The notes beneath the pieces are model-generated. The model made no database searches. It was given only the letters and a program-made list of their open reading frames with translations, and was not told the origin of the DNA. Below are positions 2,210-26,972 of a stretch of DNA of 30,405 bases, in pieces. Made by a program: the position numbers and the translations under genes. The stretch's first letter is position 1. Every line of letters starts with the position of its first letter. The DNA is taken from IMG/VR virus record IMGVR_UViG_3300017909_002920, positions 1 through 30,405 of that record; one strand, given 5' to 3'. Source of the DNA: a virus (taxonomy: Duplodnaviria > Caudoviricetes).

Positions 2210-2210
2210 T

Positions 2211-2239
2211 TGGACATAACCAACGGCCCGTGGTAGCCT
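2211..2239 (+). promoter_or_regulatory. Sigma70-type promoter upstream of the major capsid gene
   Basis: -35 TGGACA (2211-2216), 17-nt spacer ending in TGG, -10 TAGCCT (2234-2239), i.e. an extended -10 TGnTAnnnT. Confidence 0.65.
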
Positions 2240-2244
2240 TTGGC

Positions 2245-2350: not shown

Positions 2351-3400
2351 ATGCCCCCAAGTTCCGTTCTTACAACCACGCTTCAGCTCCTTCGGGACAA
2401 GCTGGTTGACAACAGCTTCCTTGCGCATCCCCTGATTGCCGCCATTCAGGAACACGGCAACCTTGTCAAAGTTTCCGGCGGCTCCCGCGTGGAACAACCC
2501 GTGATTTTCGGGGAACACAGTTCCATTTCCGAACTGAATAGCGGTTTCGAACCCGTCAACATGGCGGTTACGGACCCTTTTCACACCGCGAAATTCGAAT
2601 ATTCGAATTTCACCGCCCCTGTTGTCCTTTCCGCGGTCGAAAAGGCCGCCAACAAGGGGGATTTGGCCGTGGTGAACATCTTGGAATCCAAGATGAAGAA
2701 CGTACTCCTGGCGATGAAAAAAGAAGTTTGCCAGCAAATCATTCGCGGCAACGCTTCCAAGATTTCCACGCTTCAAACCTTGAACGGCAACGGCGTTTCG
2801 TCGGGCGGCGTGGACATTACCGCGCCCAACACAACCGGTTGGCTTGAAGCGCGTGCGCAAGCCGCACAAACCAACACGGTTGGCGGCCTTTCCAAGACTA
2901 CCTTCCAAGCCCAGAACTGGTACAACCAGTTCGTGGACGCGGGCGGAACGCTTGCCCTTGCCAATCTGGATGAACTGTTCATTCAATCCCAGCTGTACAA
3001 CCCCGCCGGTTCTACCCCGGACATCATGCTGATGTCCCCCAACGCATACGCGGCCTTCCTGGCGTTGATGGATGCACGGATTCAGTACATTTCTGTTGGC
3101 GACCGGGAAGGACTCAATCAGGAAATGGTCCCAACGTACCGGGGCGCCCGCATCTATGTGGACCCCAACCTTGGGTACAACGTCCATTCCACCATTTCCG
3201 CCAACCGGGAACCCGTTTCCGCGTATCTACTGAGTTCCGATCAGTTCCAACTTTACGTGGATACGGACGGATTCTTCAACGTGGGCGAAATGGAACGCGT
3301 CCCCGGTACCGCAACGGAAGCCGCCATGATTTTCTGCCGTATGCAGTTGGTCACGGGGCATCTTGCATCCCATTCCATTCTTCTTGACGCTGAGGCTTGA
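2351..3400 (+). CDS. Major capsid protein (349 aa)
   Basis: Size and position after the scaffold. The N-terminus TTTLQLLRDKLVDNSFLAHPL..VSGGSRVEQPV and later PDIMLMSPNAY..F and YRGARIYVD resemble podovirus HK97-fold capsids. Confidence 0.9.
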   Translation: MPPSSVLTTTLQLLRDKLVDNSFLAHPLIAAIQEHGNLVKVSGGSRVEQPVIFGEHSSISELNSGFEPVNMAVTDPFHTAKFEYSNFTAPVVLSAVEKAANKGDLAVVNILESKMKNVLLAMKKEVCQQIIRGNASKISTLQTLNGNGVSSGGVDITAPNTTGWLEARAQAAQTNTVGGLSKTTFQAQNWYNQFVDAGGTLALANLDELFIQSQLYNPAGSTPDIMLMSPNAYAAFLALMDARIQYISVGDREGLNQEMVPTYRGARIYVDPNLGYNVHSTISANREPVSAYLLSSDQFQLYVDTDGFFNVGEMERVPGTATEAAMIFCRMQLVTGHLASHSILLDAEA

Positions 3401-3404
3401 TCAA

Positions 3405-3842
3405 ATGGCAACTTCAACCCTTGTACAGTTTCTTGCGTCCGGTGAGGCCGGGGACACTTCGCACCGCCGCCAGGTTGAAACCTACCTTGCGTCCGGGGCA
3501 ATCACCAAAGGCGATATTGTCGCGTTCGATGACGGCAAGACCGGGGCGGACCGCATCCTGTATGTCGAACAGGCCGGTATCGTCGCAACCGGAAACGGCC
3601 TTGCCGCGGGCGTTGCGCTGGAAACCGTTGCCGCGGATGAACAGGTCCGCGTCATCGTTGCCGGGTACGCGGAAGACGTGTCTTGCGCGGCGGGCGTCGC
3701 TACCGCAACCGTGGTGAACGCCGCCGGAACCGCCGCCGGACAAGCGGAAGCCGCCGCCGCCGGTGATACCGCGGTGTTTGGTGTCACCGTGGAACCGGAA
3801 GCGGGCGGAACCGTGGATTTGATCGTCTACAAACGGTTCTAA
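3405..3842 (+). CDS. Capsid cement/decoration protein (145 aa)
   Basis: Small Ala/Gly/Val-rich beta protein right after the capsid gene, with ASGAITKGDIV and GVALETVAADEQVRV..G typical of DUF2190-like cement proteins. Start moved to ATG 3405. Confidence 0.75.
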   Translation: MATSTLVQFLASGEAGDTSHRRQVETYLASGAITKGDIVAFDDGKTGADRILYVEQAGIVATGNGLAAGVALETVAADEQVRVIVAGYAEDVSCAAGVATATVVNAAGTAAGQAEAAAAGDTAVFGVTVEPEAGGTVDLIVYKRF

Positions 3843-3867
3843 CCTCCTGGGGTCTTCCCAGACCCTT

Positions 3868-3913
3868 GCCCGTTCCCGGTGTCCCCCCTACCGGGGACGG
3901 GCTTTTCTGTTTT
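3868..3913 (+). terminator. Rho-independent terminator of the capsid operon
   Basis: 13-bp stem GCCCGTTCCCGGT (3868-3880)/ACCGGGGACGGGC (3890-3902, one G-U pair), C-rich loop, followed by TTTTCTGTTTT. Confidence 0.9.
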
Positions 3914-3927
3914 CATAGGCGGACCGC

Positions 3928-5319
3928 ATGAACCTTGGACAGTTGATCGATTTTGTCGGCAACCTGTTGGACTATGACCCTTCAAACAGTTCATACAGGG
4001 AACAGTTGGTTGCGCTTATCAACGACGCCCAAACCCGCATCTTAACGGACCGGCCTTGGGATTTTGCCCAACGGGACCGCAAGGTAAAGGCTTGGACGGA
4101 CACAACCGCGGACTTCAACTTCACGTTTGGTTCCGACGCGGTGACGGGCGCCTTGTTCCCGGTGTCAACGGATATGGTCCGCCCCGGAAGCGAGTGGACC
4201 GGGGCAACATTCACGGTCCCCAACGCGGCGGGGGAGCTGGAAGCGTACCGGATTGCGTGGGTAAAATCCGCAACGGAACTGTACTTGGACCGCCCCTTCA
4301 CAACCACGCTTTCCGGCGTGCGGAACGTCACCTTGCGGCGGCGGGATGTCTTCCTTCCGTCCGATTGTCTGCAAGTTCAAAACGTTTCGGACCCTTCCGT
4401 GGGTATCCCCGCCAAAGCCTTGTTCCTTTCCCGTTGGGAACGGGAAGATGCGGACTTGGACCCGGACCTGTTGGGCGTGGTGGAAGCGTACCTTCCCACG
4501 GACGGGAAGGTGATTCCAGCTCCCAACCGCCCAACGGGCGTGTCCGTCGTTGCGGGCGTGTCCCAAGGCGTCCGAACCATCAACGTGTATCAGGTCAACG
4601 TCCGGGGACCTTCCGCCACAAACTTTCCCGTATATCCGCGGGACGTATCGGACGGGTTTGAATCCGCGTTTTCAAAGGTCCGCGTGTTCAACCTGGCGGA
4701 CAACCAAACGCTTTCCTTCCAACCGCAACCGTTGGACCCGCAAACGGGCCTTTGGCGGCGGTATTACTTCACGTGTCCGGAAGCGGGTATCCTTGCCCCG
4801 GTCCGCATCCGCCATACGGAACCGCTTGAACCAACGGGCGTGACAACGGGAACCGATACTGTACCGCCGGACAACCCCGCCTTTGGGGGGATGGTACTGT
4901 TGCCGAACCTGGCGCTTTCCCACTTGGATACGCAAGCCTTCCGCGCCAGCTCCATCCGCTATGTATGGAACCAATCCGCCGCATATCAGTCCATCCAGAC
5001 ATACCCGCACGTGTCCGGGGACCAATACTTGAACGTGCGCATGTTGGTCAATCCGGAACGGTTGCAGGAAGATCAAGACGCCCCATTGGTTCCCCACGCC
5101 TATGCCCAAATGATTGCATACGCGGCCCTTGAAAACCTTGCGTTGAAGGTAGACAATCCGGCCTTGTCCGCGGTCTATGCCCGCAAAAAGGATGTCTTGT
5201 ACCGGGGTATGGAACAAGCGTACCTTCAAGCCGTCCCCCGTCGCATTGTCCGCGGCAACCCGACCGCCGGGTATCGCTTTGTTCGCAATCCCTTTGGGAA
5301 GTTGACGTTCACGCCATGA
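3928..5319 (+). CDS. Head-tail adaptor protein with a large beta-rich insertion (463 aa)
   Basis: Adaptor-like N-terminus (MNLGQL...LVALINDAQTRI...PWDF) and C-terminus (DAPLVPHAYAQMIAYAAL) flank about 300 aa of beta-type sequence; first gene after the head operon. Confidence 0.7.
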   Translation: MNLGQLIDFVGNLLDYDPSNSSYREQLVALINDAQTRILTDRPWDFAQRDRKVKAWTDTTADFNFTFGSDAVTGALFPVSTDMVRPGSEWTGATFTVPNAAGELEAYRIAWVKSATELYLDRPFTTTLSGVRNVTLRRRDVFLPSDCLQVQNVSDPSVGIPAKALFLSRWEREDADLDPDLLGVVEAYLPTDGKVIPAPNRPTGVSVVAGVSQGVRTINVYQVNVRGPSATNFPVYPRDVSDGFESAFSKVRVFNLADNQTLSFQPQPLDPQTGLWRRYYFTCPEAGILAPVRIRHTEPLEPTGVTTGTDTVPPDNPAFGGMVLLPNLALSHLDTQAFRASSIRYVWNQSAAYQSIQTYPHVSGDQYLNVRMLVNPERLQEDQDAPLVPHAYAQMIAYAALENLALKVDNPALSAVYARKKDVLYRGMEQAYLQAVPRRIVRGNPTAGYRFVRNPFGKLTFTP

Positions 5320-15500: not shown

Positions 15501-17337
15501 AACGGCCGTGGATGATGTCATCTTGAACACGGACTTCACGCGTCCGACCGGGGCAACCCTGTTGGAGCGGGCGCAAGCGGCGGTCCGGATTCCGGGGCGC
15601 GGTGCGGTCCTTCCGGAAGACTTGTCCCGCCAGCTCGGAAACCGGATTCAGGTATATGACAAGTCCGCCGGAACCGCGGAAAAGGCCCTTGCGGAAGGCG
15701 CAGAATCCTTGGTTGTGGCGTTGGAAGAAATCCCGGTGCGGGAGCGGGCGGCGGTCGGGAAAATGGCGGCGGACGCCTTGGACTTTGTAGTCGGAACCGG
15801 GCGGCGGAATATCAGTCAACGATTGCAGTACGGGTACATTGTTCCCAACTTGCCCGTCCAAGTGGGAAGAACCCTTCAAATGGGGTTGGTCCCGTTCTTC
15901 ACCATTGGTGCGCGGAACGCGTTGCAGGCGTTTGACCGGGCGGGACAACGGGCGTTGTCCGCGTTGACGCGGCGGCGTGTCCTTGGGGGCGGACTTACAA
16001 CGGAAAATGGCGTATACCTATCGCCCAAAGTGCTTGATGATTTGGCGGATGAATACGGGCTTGGATTGACGCAAGTGGAAACGGAACGCGTGGGTTCCCT
16101 TGCGTCCGATATGATACGCGCCGCAAAGCGCCAGGCGCGGCGGGTTGAAGACCCGGACAACGCGGATTTGGTACAGTCCTTGGAAGAAATGGACCCGTTT
16201 TCCCGTGGGTACTTCCTACGGGTAGCGGAAGCCGCGGAACTAAACTTCCGCAAGTCCGTGTTTGAAATGGCGCTTGCACGCGGGGACGCCCCCCAAGACG
16301 CGGCGGAGCTGGCGCGGAAATCGCAACTAAACTTCCAAGACGTTCCGGATGCGGTCCAACGGACCCTTGGAAAGTACGTGGGGGAATCCGCCTTCCTGTA
16401 TCGGGCGGGGACGGAAGCCTTGCTTGCGATTGCGGCAAGCCCCAAACGTGCCGCCCGTGTTTTGCGGACCTTGCGGGCCAAAGCGGAAGTCCAAGACCCG
16501 TACAACATCCACGGGGACAAGGCGTTGAAGTCCATGGGCATTATTCCCAAAGGGGATGATGAAGTGTATTACTTGCCGGAAATCCCCGCGTTGCAACCCG
16601 TGGAAGCCGCCCTTGGGACCATCCGTTCCGTTGACAACTTGGTTGATGACTTGCGGTTTGCAACCACGCAATCCGCGGGAGTTATGGACGCCATTCAAGG
16701 CAAGCCGTTCACGGCTGGAACTGCAATCCAGTTGGGCGGTGAAGTCATCATGCCCGCGGTATTACAAGCGTATGACCGGTTCCAGGAAGGGGAAGAATAC
16801 AAAACCACGGACGTTCCGGACGCAAAGCCGTTGTCCGATGAACAAGCGTTTTGGGCGTGGATGATTATTGCCAACAACCGGGACCCGGAACATACCAACG
16901 GACAATGGGCCGCGTTCACCACGCTTGCGCCAATCAAACAACTTGAACCGCCCGCGGACAAGGCGTCCAAGTCCATCCCCGGTGCATGGACGGAACAACC
17001 GCCGGAAGGTATCCCCCACGTTTTGGTGGATGTCATTGACGGGGAACCGGCCTATTTCGTAGCGGAACCCACGCCGCAAGCGTTGTCCAACATCCGCTTT
17101 GCACGCAAAATGGACGTTGCCGGTTTGGACCGCCTGTTGCCCGCATACGCAATCCTTTCCGAACGGGACCGCGGTACCGCTCCCGTGTCCGTGTTTACGG
17201 AAGGCCGCCTTCCAACCACGTTGACGGAAGCCGCCGGGGAAGCCTTGCTTGGGTTTGAACAAGCGGATGTCCAACGGGAGCTGGAACGCCAGGCGGGAAC
17301 AGTCCGGGACATCCGGGAAGGAATCGAGATACAATAG
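12586..17337 (+). CDS. Large DNA-ejection/internal virion protein (1583 aa)
   Basis: Largest ORF and helical. The segment AELNFRKSVFEMALARGDAPQDAAELARKSQLNF resembles large podovirus ejection proteins. No enzymatic motif recognised. Confidence 0.7.
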   Translation: MTPEQIAARRELVRRELARRELARRERAKIPLPREQEEPVVFAPAGEVAEAAEAEVAEAAAERVAEAGYFEVPGRSVLQAEGREREALAAQQERQRGRVAMPGVRGPVEVTEGIFRPSRIQTVETFERPAPGTGVLLEPPEPERIAAADLPVPFDPLTLKPTLRRMYRDPETGTFSEPTLAQEFREAAALQTERGEEALRERQADIQRQQRELDAALAAGEPIPFYEQYVGNPISGVLSRAEQGVGVVETELTAALRAALSWGAVAAGDAYFRGLGYEVDENGYPLDPDDFGYEVAKIRESLGIPELVTPFGGLKGAAQYYGEKAGLSPEDITTIENALDAIPQLAIPLPGVATESGTRKVTTFDPEGRRRVEDVEVPYPWEDPKGFIKAEARRITQNVAKGRTWGDEYLDSPATREFYAHATGDADNAYIAGMIPEILIPGPEVLLSAPGYLAGAAADVLRASRNLGPLIRAERAVKITAQQLKNARAADVPAAEIVRFEAAAEQALRRHAALSDAAGDYDPTLLRKVAEKSADKVLKNKSPEQLRDVRAALAASDRPETIGELTDTLRGLLAEDDVARITTLTQRNLPADFVSLTDTIAVPRAQLAAAKAALKEHRSAAFVKPSGEVLEDLFNLARKMPEGPKRDAVLKTYRSARAELDAVAAPARGYAGLGKSRRQVENAIKAAARETGVEDAAEYVRRFDQRPPRDLPLGDTPLAKELAKYDSWQDVPATLRRRAVDSYDIAAAPKLARGARLSRDLTRAQLFFKSAGNGLLDDTFLRSRFMDSMRMRRFLARFGRLRTETKAVADIGREIRLAGKTALRTMETKLKAGIARFGNVEDAVDDLLKSELTQAGEGPQQAWEALWGMVYGDAVKDDLVAAVQESKALRMDEAGDFADYPTIETATAIDRLFSDLEGVIPGVTPDLAEKAERVGLGGIVTPDFIPAFLKVTFENGLKKTIAARKRLTGAVQTAVDDVILNTDFTRPTGATLLERAQAAVRIPGRGAVLPEDLSRQLGNRIQVYDKSAGTAEKALAEGAESLVVALEEIPVRERAAVGKMAADALDFVVGTGRRNISQRLQYGYIVPNLPVQVGRTLQMGLVPFFTIGARNALQAFDRAGQRALSALTRRRVLGGGLTTENGVYLSPKVLDDLADEYGLGLTQVETERVGSLASDMIRAAKRQARRVEDPDNADLVQSLEEMDPFSRGYFLRVAEAAELNFRKSVFEMALARGDAPQDAAELARKSQLNFQDVPDAVQRTLGKYVGESAFLYRAGTEALLAIAASPKRAARVLRTLRAKAEVQDPYNIHGDKALKSMGIIPKGDDEVYYLPEIPALQPVEAALGTIRSVDNLVDDLRFATTQSAGVMDAIQGKPFTAGTAIQLGGEVIMPAVLQAYDRFQEGEEYKTTDVPDAKPLSDEQAFWAWMIIANNRDPEHTNGQWAAFTTLAPIKQLEPPADKASKSIPGAWTEQPPEGIPHVLVDVIDGEPAYFVAEPTPQALSNIRFARKMDVAGLDRLLPAYAILSERDRGTAPVSVFTEGRLPTTLTEAAGEALLGFEQADVQRELERQAGTVRDIREGIEIQ
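12610..12667 (+). repeat. In-frame 15-bp tandem repeat encoding (RRELA)n
   Basis: CGGCGGGAGCTGGCG is exact at 12625-12639 and 12640-12654, with degenerate copies at 12610 and 12655. Confidence 0.9.
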
Positions 17338-22115: not shown

Positions 22116-22141
22116 GGTTGTTTCCTGGGGTCAATGGGCGT

Positions 22142-23342: not shown

Positions 23343-25595
23343 TCATTCTCCTGGGGTTTGCACGTTCCGGACGTGCGGGGTTTGGTCGTGGAAATGGGCG
23401 TGAATGGCCCGCAAGCCGTTTGAATCCCCGCGGCAAGCTCCGACCTTTTCGTAGTACGTGGTTCCGTTTGTTCTCACACGTTCGAAACCCACGCGTAGCA
23501 ACGCGGCGGACAACGATAGTCCGCGCCTTTGGGGATTGATATGGTCGTCAATGGCGGCGGCAAACTGCGCAACGGTGAAGCGGTTGCGCGGTCCCCCGTC
23601 GTTGTTTTGAAAGGCCGTGGTTGCACATTCCGTGTACCAATCGACATACCGGAAGGCGTCATTGTTTGCGTCCCGCAAGCGTTCTTCCACGGGCGTCAAC
23701 CACCATTGTTCCCCCGCGGCCCAACGGGCAACGCTTTCCGCGTACAACTGTTCCCGGTTGGCTCGCAACCATTCCAAGTCCGCCTTGCGGCCTTTGGGGA
23801 CGGCAACAACCCAATAACGACGGTCCCCGGTAGTATCTCGCAAGAGGTTCCGTTCATTGGATGTCATGGAAATGACGGTATGCCGCTTGAACGTGCGGAC
23901 CTTGCGCCCAAAGGGCGGGCGGATGCGGTCCGTTTGGGATGACAAGAACGCCTTGCGCAGTTCCTTGTCTCCCGTACTGTTGGACGACATTTCCGCGTCT
24001 TCATATATCCACGCCATATATAGTTGAAGATAGGCGTCTTTATCCTTCATATTGAACCGGGTATCGCTAAACAGACAACCAACCGTGGGAACGGTTGCCC
24101 ATTCACGGAAAAGCGTACTTTTCCCAAACGCTTGCGGTCCGGTCAAGACAAGGCACGTGTCCAACTTGCAACCGGGGTCCATGGCGCGGGCGGCAAGCCC
24201 AATGCACCAACGCAAGGAAAACGCCCGGTATACGTCCCTATCTTCCACGCCGCATGTATCCGCCAACCAACGGTGACACCGGGGTACCCCGTCCCACTTC
24301 AAGGTGCGTAGATAGTCCTGCAACGGGTTCCGCGTCCGTTCCCGGCATACCTGTTCCATGGTGGACCAAATCAGTTCCCGACCGGGGCGCCAGCTCCAAC
24401 CGTATGCCGTATCCATATGTTGAAGGACTTGTACCCACGCAACGTCCTCAAGCGGTTGTTCCCCGTCCATTTCCACGCCGCGGAAGGAATCAAACCAAAG
24501 GTCCCACGTATCGTCATCAACCAACATCTTGCGCAGATTGGAAGGACTGTTCAACGGTCCGCCCGGTCTCCCGTTCTTCCCCGGTCCTTGGACCAAATCC
24601 GCAAGGCCGGAACGGGACGTTCCCTTGTACGTGTTCCAATACGTACACGATTGGGGACCGGAAAAGTACCGGGCACGCCCGTCCGGTTCCTTGCAGAAAA
24701 ACCCGGAACCAATGGTGGAACCGCCAAAGGGACAAACCACTTTGGTCCGCTCCCCAGGTGACAACGCGTTTGCGATTGTTTGCCAAACACGCCCGTCCGC
24801 CAAACGCATAGCCCGGAAGTCAACTTCCACCGTGGTTGCGGTTTGCGGGCGCTTTGGCTTTGGGATTGCGGGCGGCACGCTCCCGTCCGGAAGGACACCG
24901 GGGCGCAAGTACGCTTCCCGCAAGGCCGCAAGGGTTTCCCGGTCCAACACGGTTGGCGCGGCGGTAATGACCCGCACGTCCCGTGGATTGCCTGGCGCTT
25001 TGGTGTTTTGGCTTCCCGGCATACGCGCCAGGCGTGCCCCAACATCATGCGTTGCGTCAAAGGCGGAAGGGATGTCCAAGGCCGGTTGGAAGGTGCGTCC
25101 CACTTCGAACGCAAGGCGGTTGGCTTCATCAATGATTGCGGCGGCTATCTGTTGAAGGGCAACCACTTCCCCGGACATGTCTTCCGTGATTGCGTAGTGG
25201 ACGTGGAAGCCCCAACCGGAATCAATCAACAGGGTTGGCGGCTCCCCAACGGCACGGGCAACGCACGAAACGATTTCATCACACAACAACGCTTGGAGCT
25301 GGCGTACCACGTCCGGTTCTTCCGCATACAAGCGGGCCTTCCGTTCCGCGGCACGGGCTTCAAGAACTTGTCCTTGGGCCTGGCGGGCGGCGTCGAACAA
25401 CGGGAGCAAGTCACAATCAAAAAACAAGGACGTGACCGCCTTGCAGTTTTGAACGGTCCGCCCGCGTCCATGGCGGTCAACCCGCTTGGACGGGAAGTAC
25501 CCCGTTGAAATGTATTCGCCGCCCTTCAACGATTGCCGGACATAGGTATGACCCGCGGGCGGCGTGGGCCAAACCCGTCTAATGTTTGCGTCCAT
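23343..25595 (-). CDS. Primase-helicase: AEP-type primase fused to a VapE-like SF3 helicase (750 aa)
   Basis: AEP motifs FFDCD, SGWGFHVHY and RLARMPGSQNTK; VapE motifs WDGVPR, PGCKLD, Walker A GPQAFGKST and LRDTTGDRRYW. Confidence 0.9.
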   Translation of the reverse strand: MDANIRRVWPTPPAGHTYVRQSLKGGEYISTGYFPSKRVDRHGRGRTVQNCKAVTSLFFDCDLLPLFDAARQAQGQVLEARAAERKARLYAEEPDVVRQLQALLCDEIVSCVARAVGEPPTLLIDSGWGFHVHYAITEDMSGEVVALQQIAAAIIDEANRLAFEVGRTFQPALDIPSAFDATHDVGARLARMPGSQNTKAPGNPRDVRVITAAPTVLDRETLAALREAYLRPGVLPDGSVPPAIPKPKRPQTATTVEVDFRAMRLADGRVWQTIANALSPGERTKVVCPFGGSTIGSGFFCKEPDGRARYFSGPQSCTYWNTYKGTSRSGLADLVQGPGKNGRPGGPLNSPSNLRKMLVDDDTWDLWFDSFRGVEMDGEQPLEDVAWVQVLQHMDTAYGWSWRPGRELIWSTMEQVCRERTRNPLQDYLRTLKWDGVPRCHRWLADTCGVEDRDVYRAFSLRWCIGLAARAMDPGCKLDTCLVLTGPQAFGKSTLFREWATVPTVGCLFSDTRFNMKDKDAYLQLYMAWIYEDAEMSSNSTGDKELRKAFLSSQTDRIRPPFGRKVRTFKRHTVISMTSNERNLLRDTTGDRRYWVVAVPKGRKADLEWLRANREQLYAESVARWAAGEQWWLTPVEERLRDANNDAFRYVDWYTECATTAFQNNDGGPRNRFTVAQFAAAIDDHINPQRRGLSLSAALLRVGFERVRTNGTTYYEKVGACRGDSNGLRAIHAHFHDQTPHVRNVQTPGE

Positions 25596-25603
25596 TGGGC
25601 TTC

Positions 25604-25789
25604 CTACGGTTTGGGGAGTAGGGCCGCCAACGCTTCCGACTGCAAGCGGCGGGCAAGGTCCGCTTGCGTTTGCGGGCGCAAAACGGATTCCACGTATTCA
25701 GGTACCGACAAACCCGCGGCGGCGGCGGACATTTTCAGTTCCCGTTCATGTTCAATGGACAGTTCCACACGATACTTTTTGGTCTTCAT
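25604..25789 (-). CDS. Ribbon-helix-helix (CopG/Arc-like) DNA-binding regulator (61 aa)
   Basis: Strand KYRVEL, helix, AAAAGLSVPEYV turn, helix; ATGA-coupled to the upstream gene. Confidence 0.7.
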   Translation of the reverse strand: MKTKKYRVELSIEHERELKMSAAAAGLSVPEYVESVLRPQTQADLARRLQSEALAALLPKP

Positions 25790-26378: not shown

Positions 26379-26388
26379 GGTTCCCCCT

Positions 26389-26574
26389 TCAAATGGCCAT
26401 GTACGTGAAAAGCAAGGCGAAAATAACAAACGCCCCAACCGCATCTTCAACCCACGCCGGCACGCCGGGGACGCCAGGCACGCCGGGGACCGTGGGCGGT
26501 TGTGGGACAGTTTGTGGGACATCGTGGGACAGTTCATCTTCCCGCGGGTCCAAGTAGTGATTGCCGTATTCCAT
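26389..26574 (-). CDS. First early gene: small membrane protein with VPG/VPQ repeats (61 aa)
   Basis: AGGAG SD; TVPQPPTVPGVPGVPGVPA followed by C-terminal hydrophobic AVGAFVIFALLFTYMAI. Confidence 0.7.
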   Translation of the reverse strand: MEYGNHYLDPREDELSHDVPQTVPQPPTVPGVPGVPGVPAWVEDAVGAFVIFALLFTYMAI

Positions 26575-26616
26575 GGTTTCTCCTGGGGTCCGCCGGGGAT
26601 GTCCGGGGACGCGGCA

Positions 26617-26640
26617 AGGGTATCACATTCCAAAGTGGAA
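26617..26640 (-). promoter_or_regulatory. Candidate early promoter (extended -10) with adjacent palindromic operator
   Basis: Minus-strand TG-A-TACCCT (26625 to 26617), about 40 nt before ATG 26574; inverted repeat TTCCA-AAG-TGGAA at 26628-26640; no good -35. Confidence 0.4.
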
Positions 26641-26690: not shown

Positions 26691-26967
26691 AAAGCCCACC
26701 ATCACGGGACTTTGGGCCATAGTGCAGGGTAGCGGGGTTGGCGTGTCAACCCTGCACTGACTTCATTCCGCTATTGATGGGGGCTTTGGGGTGGACAGTG
26801 CAAGGTAGTGCAGGGTTTTCCCTATAGAGCGGTTGTTGTTGTTCTATATGTATTCGGAGCCAAAAACCCTGCACTACCCTGCACTATTTGTCGAAAAGGC
26901 CCGTGAATAGCCCATTTAATCAGTGCAGGGTTGACGTGCCAACCCTGCACTGTACCGCAAAGCCCCC
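26691..26967. repeat. Symmetric iteron/palindrome array (probable replication origin, alternatively packaging site)
   Basis: AGTGCAGGGT occurs 8 times: forward at 26721, 26797 (1 mismatch), 26807 and 26922; reverse at 26749, 26866, 26876 and 26942. Confidence 0.9.
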
Positions 26968-26972
26968 TTGTA

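Follow-up and report, generated by a model that had tools for sequence, protein, structure and literature searches.

Gene layout and the region downstream of the capsid genes

The window, by which we mean the whole 30,405-nucleotide stretch of DNA that was analyzed, is IMGVR_UViG_3300017909_002920, which represents a complete phage of 30.4 kb, has direct terminal repeats, and comes from seawater metagenomes. Its plus strand carries the terminase, portal, capsid, and virion protein genes, and its minus strand carries, from 26574 to 20906, genes for four small proteins, a primase/helicase, ERF, a RuvC-like resolvase, an exonuclease VIII-like protein, and SSB. Annotated phages match the window capsid protein at 23 to 27% only, and neither a repressor nor an integrase was found among the 30 window proteins scanned. 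The capsid region is made up as follows.

2351..3400, plus strand, major capsid protein gene (PHROG 9953 major head protein, E 7.5e-21)
3405..3842, plus strand, gene for a 145-aa cement-like protein, 3' of the capsid gene (ORF); its stop codon opens the UTR
3843..3913, plus strand, 3' UTR element made up of a single-stranded lead, hairpin 1, a terminator hairpin, and a U tract (predicted fold)
3844..3854, plus strand, putative seed CUCCUGGGGUC, formed by an open CUCCU toehold and the 5' arm of hairpin 1 (predicted fold, matches)
3849..3866, plus strand, hairpin 1 (predicted fold), in which the seed's GGGGUC half is buried at an opening cost of about 7.3 kcal/mol
3868..3913, plus strand, intrinsic-terminator-like hairpin and U tract (14 bp, stem 3868-3902, loop 3882-3888)
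3928..5319, plus strand, next late gene, 463 aa, with its own ribosome-binding site (RBS) 3' of the UTR's U tract

"Cement" and, below, "scaffold" are labels by position for which Atlas assignments are leads only; the 145-aa gene has an Atlas cluster score of 0.97, with Phage_cement_2 on 17% of the cluster's members, and PHROG, Pfam, and PDB gave no matches to it.

The RNA from 3840 to 3913 has a predicted minimum free energy of -38.3 kcal/mol (z -5.8), and none of 200 shuffles was equally stable. A sequence-only reading of this DNA had proposed a terminator with a C-rich loop, and the predicted fold agrees, with a UCCCCCC loop on the G+C-rich stem at 3868-3902 and a U tract behind it; in several relatives the U tract is short or absent. 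The same reading had also envisaged two alternative hairpins acting as a switch on the seed, and this idea had to be given up, because the 3847-3861 form is only about 7% populated (pair probability 0.07, versus 0.78 to 0.93 for 3850-3865) and the CUCCU lead is unpaired with a probability of 0.92. No consensus promoter was found upstream of 3843 and no minus-strand promoter-like site near the UTR. Rfam gave no covariance-model match in the window at the gathering score, C4 RNAs included, and six chance-level matches at 3700-4050 (E 0.8 to 8).

Several features elsewhere in the window are recorded here in their own right. Two matches below the Pfam cut-off mark candidate regulators: a weak WYL-domain match (E 0.006) in the gene at 838-1314 before the scaffold gene and a weak ParD/NikA ribbon-helix-helix match (E 0.004) in the small early gene at 25604-25789. 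Between the divergent early and terminase genes, positions 26700-26970 hold eight AGTGCAGGG-type 11-mers in direct and inverted orientation; the array, which is kept in the closest relative (L007) although the spacers differ, looks like a replication origin or a packaging/operator array. By eye, a promoter-like TGGACA-17-TAGCCT was noted upstream of the capsid gene (2210-2240, plus strand) and an extended -10 upstream of the first early gene (26613-26625, minus strand), and a promoter-like GGGACA-18-TACAAT lies at 17306-17335 (plus strand), upstream of the 17370 gene. The window strongly avoids GATC, GCGC, AATT, and CTAG, lacks CCCGGG, AGGCCT, and CGTACG entirely, and has CG directly after CCWGG at 50 of 60 sites, which suggests restriction avoidance or overlap with methylated sites. 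With regard to the host, a seedless 21-kb family member (L419, capsid 63%) lies inside a metagenome-assembled genome (MAG) labelled uncultured Dehalococcoidia, a placement that may reflect a mis-binned phage contig.

Copies of the seed motif at three early ribosome-binding sites

An exhaustive search of the window for TCCTGGGGT gave four matches, all on the plus strand (3845, 22123, 23349, and 26581), compared with a mean of 0.20 in 100 dinucleotide shuffles, none of which reached four. CTCCTGGGGTC is exact at 3844-3854 and 26580-26590 and has 10-nt matches at 22123-22132 and 23348-23357, in agreement with the earlier statement that the core recurs at only three other places (11, 10, and 10 matching bases). 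These three copies sit 5 to 8 nt ahead of the ATG of the minus-strand genes 26574, 23340, and 22115 and are, as had been claimed, the RBSs of the first early gene, ERF, and the exonuclease.

Start 26574, minus strand, first early gene, 61 aa, without a family (ORF)
26580..26590, minus strand, predicted target 1, RBS of the first early gene (11 Watson-Crick pairs and one G-U pair)
23340-22645, minus strand, ERF gene (PF04404, family match)
23348..23357, minus strand, predicted target 2, ERF RBS, overlapping the 3' end of the primase gene (10-nt match)
22115-21318, minus strand, exonuclease gene, PD-(D/E)XK exonuclease VIII-like (family match)
22123..22132, minus strand, predicted target 3, exonuclease RBS (10-nt match)
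26383..26388, minus strand, possible weak second target, G-run Shine-Dalgarno sequence ahead of the 26378 gene, which would pair over 6 bp with the terminator loop

On the minus strand the copy at 3844 leads only to TTG-TAG, which direct reading bore out, and the earlier remark that CCTGG elsewhere is nearly always CCTGGCG is matched by 50 of 56 other CCWGG sites, with one further CCTGGGG at 24754, within the primase gene. The ERF site overlaps the last codons of the primase gene and is thus under a second constraint. Since ERF, the exonuclease, and the first early gene lie on the other strand, about 7.7 to 12 kb from the UTR on the circular map, we infer that the pairing, which spans 10 to 12 bp, would occur in trans; a cis-encoded phage antisense RNA of the OOP, Sar, or aQ type was rejected, as the targets are distant, the pairing is short, and there is no long perfect duplex.

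The length of the UTR matches is not special, since 65 exact matches of at least 9 nt to the UTR occur elsewhere in the genome and the longest, of 13 nt, fall inside coding regions; it is the position of the copies that is unusual.

Predicted pairing with window genes

When 34 gene starts were ranked by pairing energies that count opening costs on both sides, the exonuclease ranked first (-10.0 kcal/mol), ERF second (-9.9 kcal/mol), and the first early gene fifth (-8.4 kcal/mol), with 1% and 5% quantiles of -9.7 and -7.6 kcal/mol for 250 random transcript windows; the UTR thus joins an open CUCCU lead to exonuclease and ERF as its top-ranked predicted targets. The third and fourth ranks go to the late gene 10457 (-9.1 kcal/mol) and the 26378 gene (-8.5 kcal/mol), each through 6 bp with the terminator loop. 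The sequence-only reading had seen in this loop a second seed for the ssb and 26378 genes, a proposal that found no support here: ssb reaches only -4.1 kcal/mol with 5 bp, the late gene 10457 scores as well as the 26378 gene, and the loop is not conserved, being C6-C7 only in the window and L008, with no conserved C-run in L010, L013, L016, and L020. In the closest relatives, where L008/L129 keep both the C7 loop and a GGGGGAA site, the terminator loop may serve as a second seed.

Three further candidates were tried and rejected. A conserved unpaired UCCC(C) seed of the RNAIII/RsaE/icaR type does not describe this element, whose seed is CUCCUGGGG in lead and stem. The scaffold gene was discarded as a window target, since its 11-bp bulged pairing scores only -4.2 kcal/mol and the same scaffold RBS occurs in seedless lineages. 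An unusual host anti-Shine-Dalgarno sequence was discarded as the cause of the shared RBS word, the capsid RBSs of a second clade (S2, below) being of the canonical GGAGG type.

Distribution of the element and its matches in the phage family

Of 143 capsid relatives that viral contigs yielded, the best 80 were used, with further loci added by terminase and ERF. Most family members have a two-hairpin element at the place of the window UTR; four (L001-L004) have a gap of 18 to 19 nt. A DNA-pattern scan of the viral contigs gave 30 matches, seven of which are this UTR (one of them new, L087) and the others unrelated. The tree of 81 members (79 distinct intergenic regions and two outgroup rows) contains six UTRs with CTCCT(T)GGGG (clade S1, that of the window), 15 with GTCCTC (clade S2), 21 with TACACT/TACAAT, three members without a UTR, and 34 others. 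In a 26-row subset S1 and S2 each occupy one side of a branch, and their union was rejected (AU p=8e-5).

The TACACT/TACAAT linker, which lies between the hairpins in 21 distinct UTRs, often 17 nt after CnnCGC, is scattered over the tree (members include L030, L067, L022, G013, G014, G048, G049, and G031) and absent from the seed-bearing clades; it is possibly a late promoter overlapping the terminator.

Using all called starts of 28 genomes, which were called independently of the hypothesis with a crude gene caller, the best 7-mer of a genome's own UTR hits three to six starts in all eight S1/S2 genomes, and none of 22 to 26 foreign UTRs does as well. In the 20 other genomes the best counts are one or two starts, and only G007 (2 versus 1) is unmatched by foreign UTRs. 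The eight positive genomes are two lineages, not eight. A 9-nt word complementary to both the ERF and the exonuclease RBS is present in the window UTR (p=0.006 against 2,000 UTR shuffles) and in none of 16 other UTRs; for the same ERF/exonuclease pair, six S2 genomes gave p values of 0.002 to 0.04, G026 gave 0.06, and seven others with a UTR gave values above 0.35, while the control pairs primase/RuvC and capsid/next gene all gave p>0.15. The same blocks emerge from a helix-energy matrix of 18 phages, in which late-gene sets, too, have a slight preference for their own UTR; scaffold and terminase account for this in S2 only.

These comparisons bear on the possibility that the matches arose by chance, with a C/U-rich terminator region mirroring purine-rich RBSs and shared ancestry multiplying one accident. 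The leads and loops of the UTRs are indeed pyrimidine-rich across the family, the 65 genome-wide matches noted above are what such an account expects, and only two lineages are clearly positive. However, shuffles that keep composition are significant in the seven genomes above, foreign family UTRs and within-clade swaps both fall short, and the S2 loop is conserved, unlike its stem, so that we judge chance highly improbable. A third candidate seed, a CUUGCCC loop in G026 and L359 that matches ERF and scaffold, is at most suggestive, with p about 0.06 and 13 of 27 foreign UTRs equally good.

Seed and predicted targets in the clade of the window

UTRs were tied to early regions through contig overlaps at 98 to 100%; for the complete 31-kb relative L282, the UTR was taken from L016 (100% overlap). 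CUCCU(U)GGGG is kept in the six distinct UTRs of this clade, and hairpin 1 shows pair-keeping changes in relatives. In L008/L129 all 13 of 13 positions pair at the first early RBS, and L016/G011 has 8 to 10 pairs at four early RBSs (first gene, e4, ERF, and SSB), its word CCAGGAGA occurring four times in 20 kb, every time at an early start. In L131, a 94% relative, four of five occurrences of the word are at starts. The seed of L013/L284 carries one extra U, and its first early RBS target carries one extra A; this target pairs at -23.9 kcal/mol with its own L013 UTR and at -17.8 to -21.8 kcal/mol with other UTRs, and the L013 UTR is the worst partner for five other targets. At the scaffold RBS a match of 7 nt to the clade's own UTR is reached in one of four cases.

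The first-early-RBS site is conserved in L129, L134, L131, L283, and L284. In contigs from four of four sequencing runs the seed at 3844-3854 is unchanged; the base preceding it changes from C to T, so that one more pair can form with the sites of the first gene and of ERF, and a further two UTR changes preserve the hairpins as G-U pairs. In the closest relative (L007, 87% nt identity), two of the three target sites carry G-U-compatible C-to-T changes, the one at the ERF site being silent for the primase; the L007 contig lacks the UTR region. The exonuclease site is unchanged in L007 and in run X5. In three of the four runs a 180-nt piece lies between the first RBS and the first gene while the RBS stays put, so the site is tied to the operon start and not to the particular gene behind it. 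L284 has a different first gene behind the first early RBS, and 26574-26580 is an insertion hot spot.

A different seed and a wider set of predicted targets in a second clade

The 15 distinct UTRs of S2 have GUCCUC as their putative seed, carried by the hairpin-1 loop; 11 of 15 predicted folds leave it fully open, and in 14 of 15 it costs at most 1.5 kcal/mol to open. This loop is kept while the preceding stem arm averages 38% identity. Its complement GAGGAC stands at the ERF and exonuclease genes in six of six S2 genomes, targets that had been named beforehand together with the first gene, and at SSB in five of six and scaffold in six of six, both of which were added after the data had been seen; it also stands at the large terminase gene in four of five. 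The SSB site of G008 is a G-U version of it. The late-to-early direction of the sequence-only reading is too narrow for the family, since scaffold and large terminase are matched as well in S2.

The S2 scaffold RBS matches its own UTR over 7 to 15 nt in 11 of 11 cases, compared with at least 7 nt in 10 of 47 from other groups, and straight pairs reach 11 in L070 and 15 in L059. Within the clade, own UTRs do better than swapped ones (p=0.0002 on 11 rows that include near-copies; exact p=0.002 on seven representatives). The loop GTCCTCG goes with TGAGGAC at scaffold and SSB, and the loop GTCCTCTC goes with GAGAGGAC; in G045, G028, and G029 the ERF and exonuclease genes keep GAGAGGAC although the loop pairs with only 7 to 8 nt of it. 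Two other matches, an 11-bp one between the terminator loop and the RuvC RBS of G047 and 8-bp ones to the primase RBS in G045/G028, are possible second seeds.

Seed and targets are thus conserved and change together in two separate clades, as the earlier proposal predicted of relatives, and such co-variation is absent in most lineages. As far as sequence comparison can establish it, the UTR is a real, co-evolving RNA element.

The CUCCU lead might instead be kept for translational coupling, by pairing in cis with the next gene's RBS on read-through RNA, with the early match as a by-product. The lead does pair with a downstream GGAG in the minimum-energy fold of L010, L016, and L020, whereas the window does not adopt this fold. 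Coupling of this kind seems very unlikely to us, as it accounts for 5 to 6 nt only and not for the GGGG/CCCC flank, the matched indel, or the loop seed of S2, where the next-gene site reads GAGGTG or GAGT/GGGA.

Lineages without a seed

Shared RBS words also occur where no antisense copy does. In G002, G021, G023, and G031 the ERF, exonuclease, and SSB RBSs have words of 7 to 10 nt in common, and no exact or convincing wobble complement was found in the UTR or elsewhere; for these four genomes and G022, no relocated antisense copy was found among the matches listed. Likewise, a search of ten distant genomes at a threshold of 9 nt, which misses the 8-nt loop seed, gave no match among those listed. 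These four genomes suggest that the shared word has another or older cause, and the tag in seedless lineages, and perhaps that of the window, may be read by a protein or a host RNA.

It is therefore necessary to consider that the RBS word is a protein site (for a translational repressor, a RegB-like nuclease, or a DNA-binding operator protein), with the UTR copy as a further site or as a decoy on a minus-strand RNA. All four window copies lie on the same DNA strand, and T4 RegB is a precedent for a protein that cuts GGAG in early mRNAs (PMC1702504). Nor did a wobble test show a preference for the plus strand: at the first non-matching flank of 46 sites there were 18 G-U-compatible changes versus 25 opposite transitions, and the split between flanks (15 G-U versus 4 A-C on one, 3 versus 21 on the other) follows RBS composition. 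However, lineage-specific extensions to 15 nt and a matched one-base indel are predictions of base pairing and not of a protein motif, the plus strand, on which the U tract lies, folds more stably than the minus strand in 65 of 79 UTRs, and the search for a minus-strand promoter-like site near the UTR was negative. The S2 targets, moreover, are spread over both DNA strands, each one reading as sense in its own mRNA and the UTR copy reading as antisense in every case, in line with recognition of RNA rather than of DNA. We therefore regard a protein site as unlikely and favor an RNA that pairs with its targets.

Discussion

Our results suggest that the capsid-cement 3' UTR is probably a trans-acting anti-RBS RNA, predicted to repress the first early gene, ERF, and the exonuclease. 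The UTR would pair in trans over Shine-Dalgarno sites and block translation as late transcripts accumulate, with repression being what we infer from the fact that every site covers a Shine-Dalgarno sequence. The timing is suggested by the fact that capsid transcripts are normally late and abundant. In S1 the open CUCCU lead would dock on AGGAG and strand exchange would follow, and only messages with CCCC just upstream would take GGGG from hairpin 1 (about 7 kcal/mol), giving 10 to 13 bp; ordinary AGGAG sites would thus be bound weakly and tagged ones strongly. In S2, pairing with the loop would replace toehold and strand exchange. A processed or untranslated form of the RNA seems favored, because a ribosome that has reached the stop codon would sit on the seed. 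The level of capsid mRNA could then act as a clock that lowers the end-resecting and strand-annealing proteins during packaging and, in S2, scaffold and terminase too.

The pairing could also be real and have another direction or outcome, such that early (or scaffold/terminase) leaders open hairpin 1 and alter termination, read-through, or stability, or that the duplex shields the RBS from a GGAG-cutting nuclease. All of the covariation evidence is blind to direction, and read-through RNA of L008 and L013 offers the GGGG arm another partner 3' of the terminator. On the other hand, every target has a Shine-Dalgarno site at its center, where a duplex keeps the 30S subunit from binding, as described for icaR (PMC3868564), hairpin 2 does not overlap the seed, and opening of hairpin 1 need not disturb the terminator, so that the reverse direction appears to be of low probability compared with repression by the UTR.

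The icaR 3' UTR motif of Staphylococcus aureus pairs over a Shine-Dalgarno sequence and blocks initiation, and RNAIII and RsaE use anti-Shine-Dalgarno pairing in trans on several mRNAs; in the accessible text of that source, icaR pairs with its own message and its ectopic 3' UTR is without effect in vivo (PMC3868564). The phage element resembles these systems in having a 3' UTR-type motif over Shine-Dalgarno sites, but as that text describes them they are bacterial and carry a fixed UCCCC motif, whereas the phage UTR combines an anti-Shine-Dalgarno core with a lineage-specific flank, and it is predicted to act on opposite-strand genes of the same phage. OppZ and CarZ of Vibrio cholerae are 3' UTR-derived autoregulatory sRNAs whose pairing inhibits translation (PMC7398697), and CisR is a 3' UTR sRNA that represses a phage mRNA (PMC13250501). 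The phage UTR likewise is the 3'-end RNA of an operon, situated between a stop codon and a predicted intrinsic terminator as 3' UTR-derived sRNAs are, and the S2 scaffold match resembles OppZ-type feedback within a gene cluster. In contrast, OppZ, CarZ, and CisR, according to the accessible parts of these reports, are host encoded and RNase E cut and/or Hfq assisted, and the main predicted targets of the phage UTR are in another operon. While its membership in the 3' UTR-derived sRNA class is unproven, the analogy suggests that the phage UTR would work like bacterial anti-Shine-Dalgarno 3' UTRs and 3' UTR-derived sRNAs.

C4 RNA carries short, loop-borne complementarity to its own phage's mRNA, and matched changes between related phages set immunity specificity. 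The C4 RNA of P1 and P7 differs in that it has a gene to itself, acts on a single target operon, and belongs to a temperate phage, and the window UTR has no Rfam match to it. This antisense RNA is named in PMC8201110, and further phage RNA examples are given in PMC10884466. SviR of the PLE satellite occludes an RBS by pairing in trans (bioRxiv 10.1101/2022.04.08.487710), lambda makes PreS, LPR2, and 6S RNA, the last of which comes from the late operon and has one early-operon target by RIL-seq (10.1101/2024.10.31.621285), and VpdS is another mobile-element RNA that pairs in trans (review, PMC12197685). These are like the phage UTR in being mobile-element RNAs pairing in trans; unlike it, they are, in the accessible text of these sources, stand-alone sRNAs with mostly host or helper-phage targets, and none is described there as a capsid 3' UTR with tagged RBSs of its own phage. 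The predicted outcome is closest to that of T4 RegB, by which early mRNAs are inactivated via GGAG Shine-Dalgarno sites (PMC1702504); RegB is a protein nuclease, whereas the phage UTR is a candidate RNA for the same job. In the literature searched, which included few subscription papers and no supplements, no phage capsid 3' UTR matched to early RBSs of its own genome was found, and the phage sRNAs in the accessible parts of that literature are mostly host-RNA acting or cis antisense.

More speculatively, the family may possess a protein-free regulon in which lineage-specific tags beside Shine-Dalgarno sequences are read by the tail of the capsid mRNA, a timer that would silence recombination genes and, in one clade, trim scaffold and terminase. 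The seed would then have arisen or been rewritten at least twice in the family, at different places of the same two-hairpin scaffold. As the tags differ between lineages, the mRNA tail could in addition silence the early genes of superinfecting phages, and of close kin alone. We advance this wider reading tentatively.

The switch-off of early functions in small lytic phages without a known repressor is largely unexplained. Nature supplies matched seed and target alleles, such as the extra U with the extra A and the 7- to 15-nt loop matches, so that the idea can be tested without the host, and the comparison of own with swapped UTRs could be applied across uncultured phages. If the proposal is true, a structural-gene 3' UTR that co-evolves with the tagged RBSs of its own phage would provide a compact infection timer and a means of balancing head proteins.
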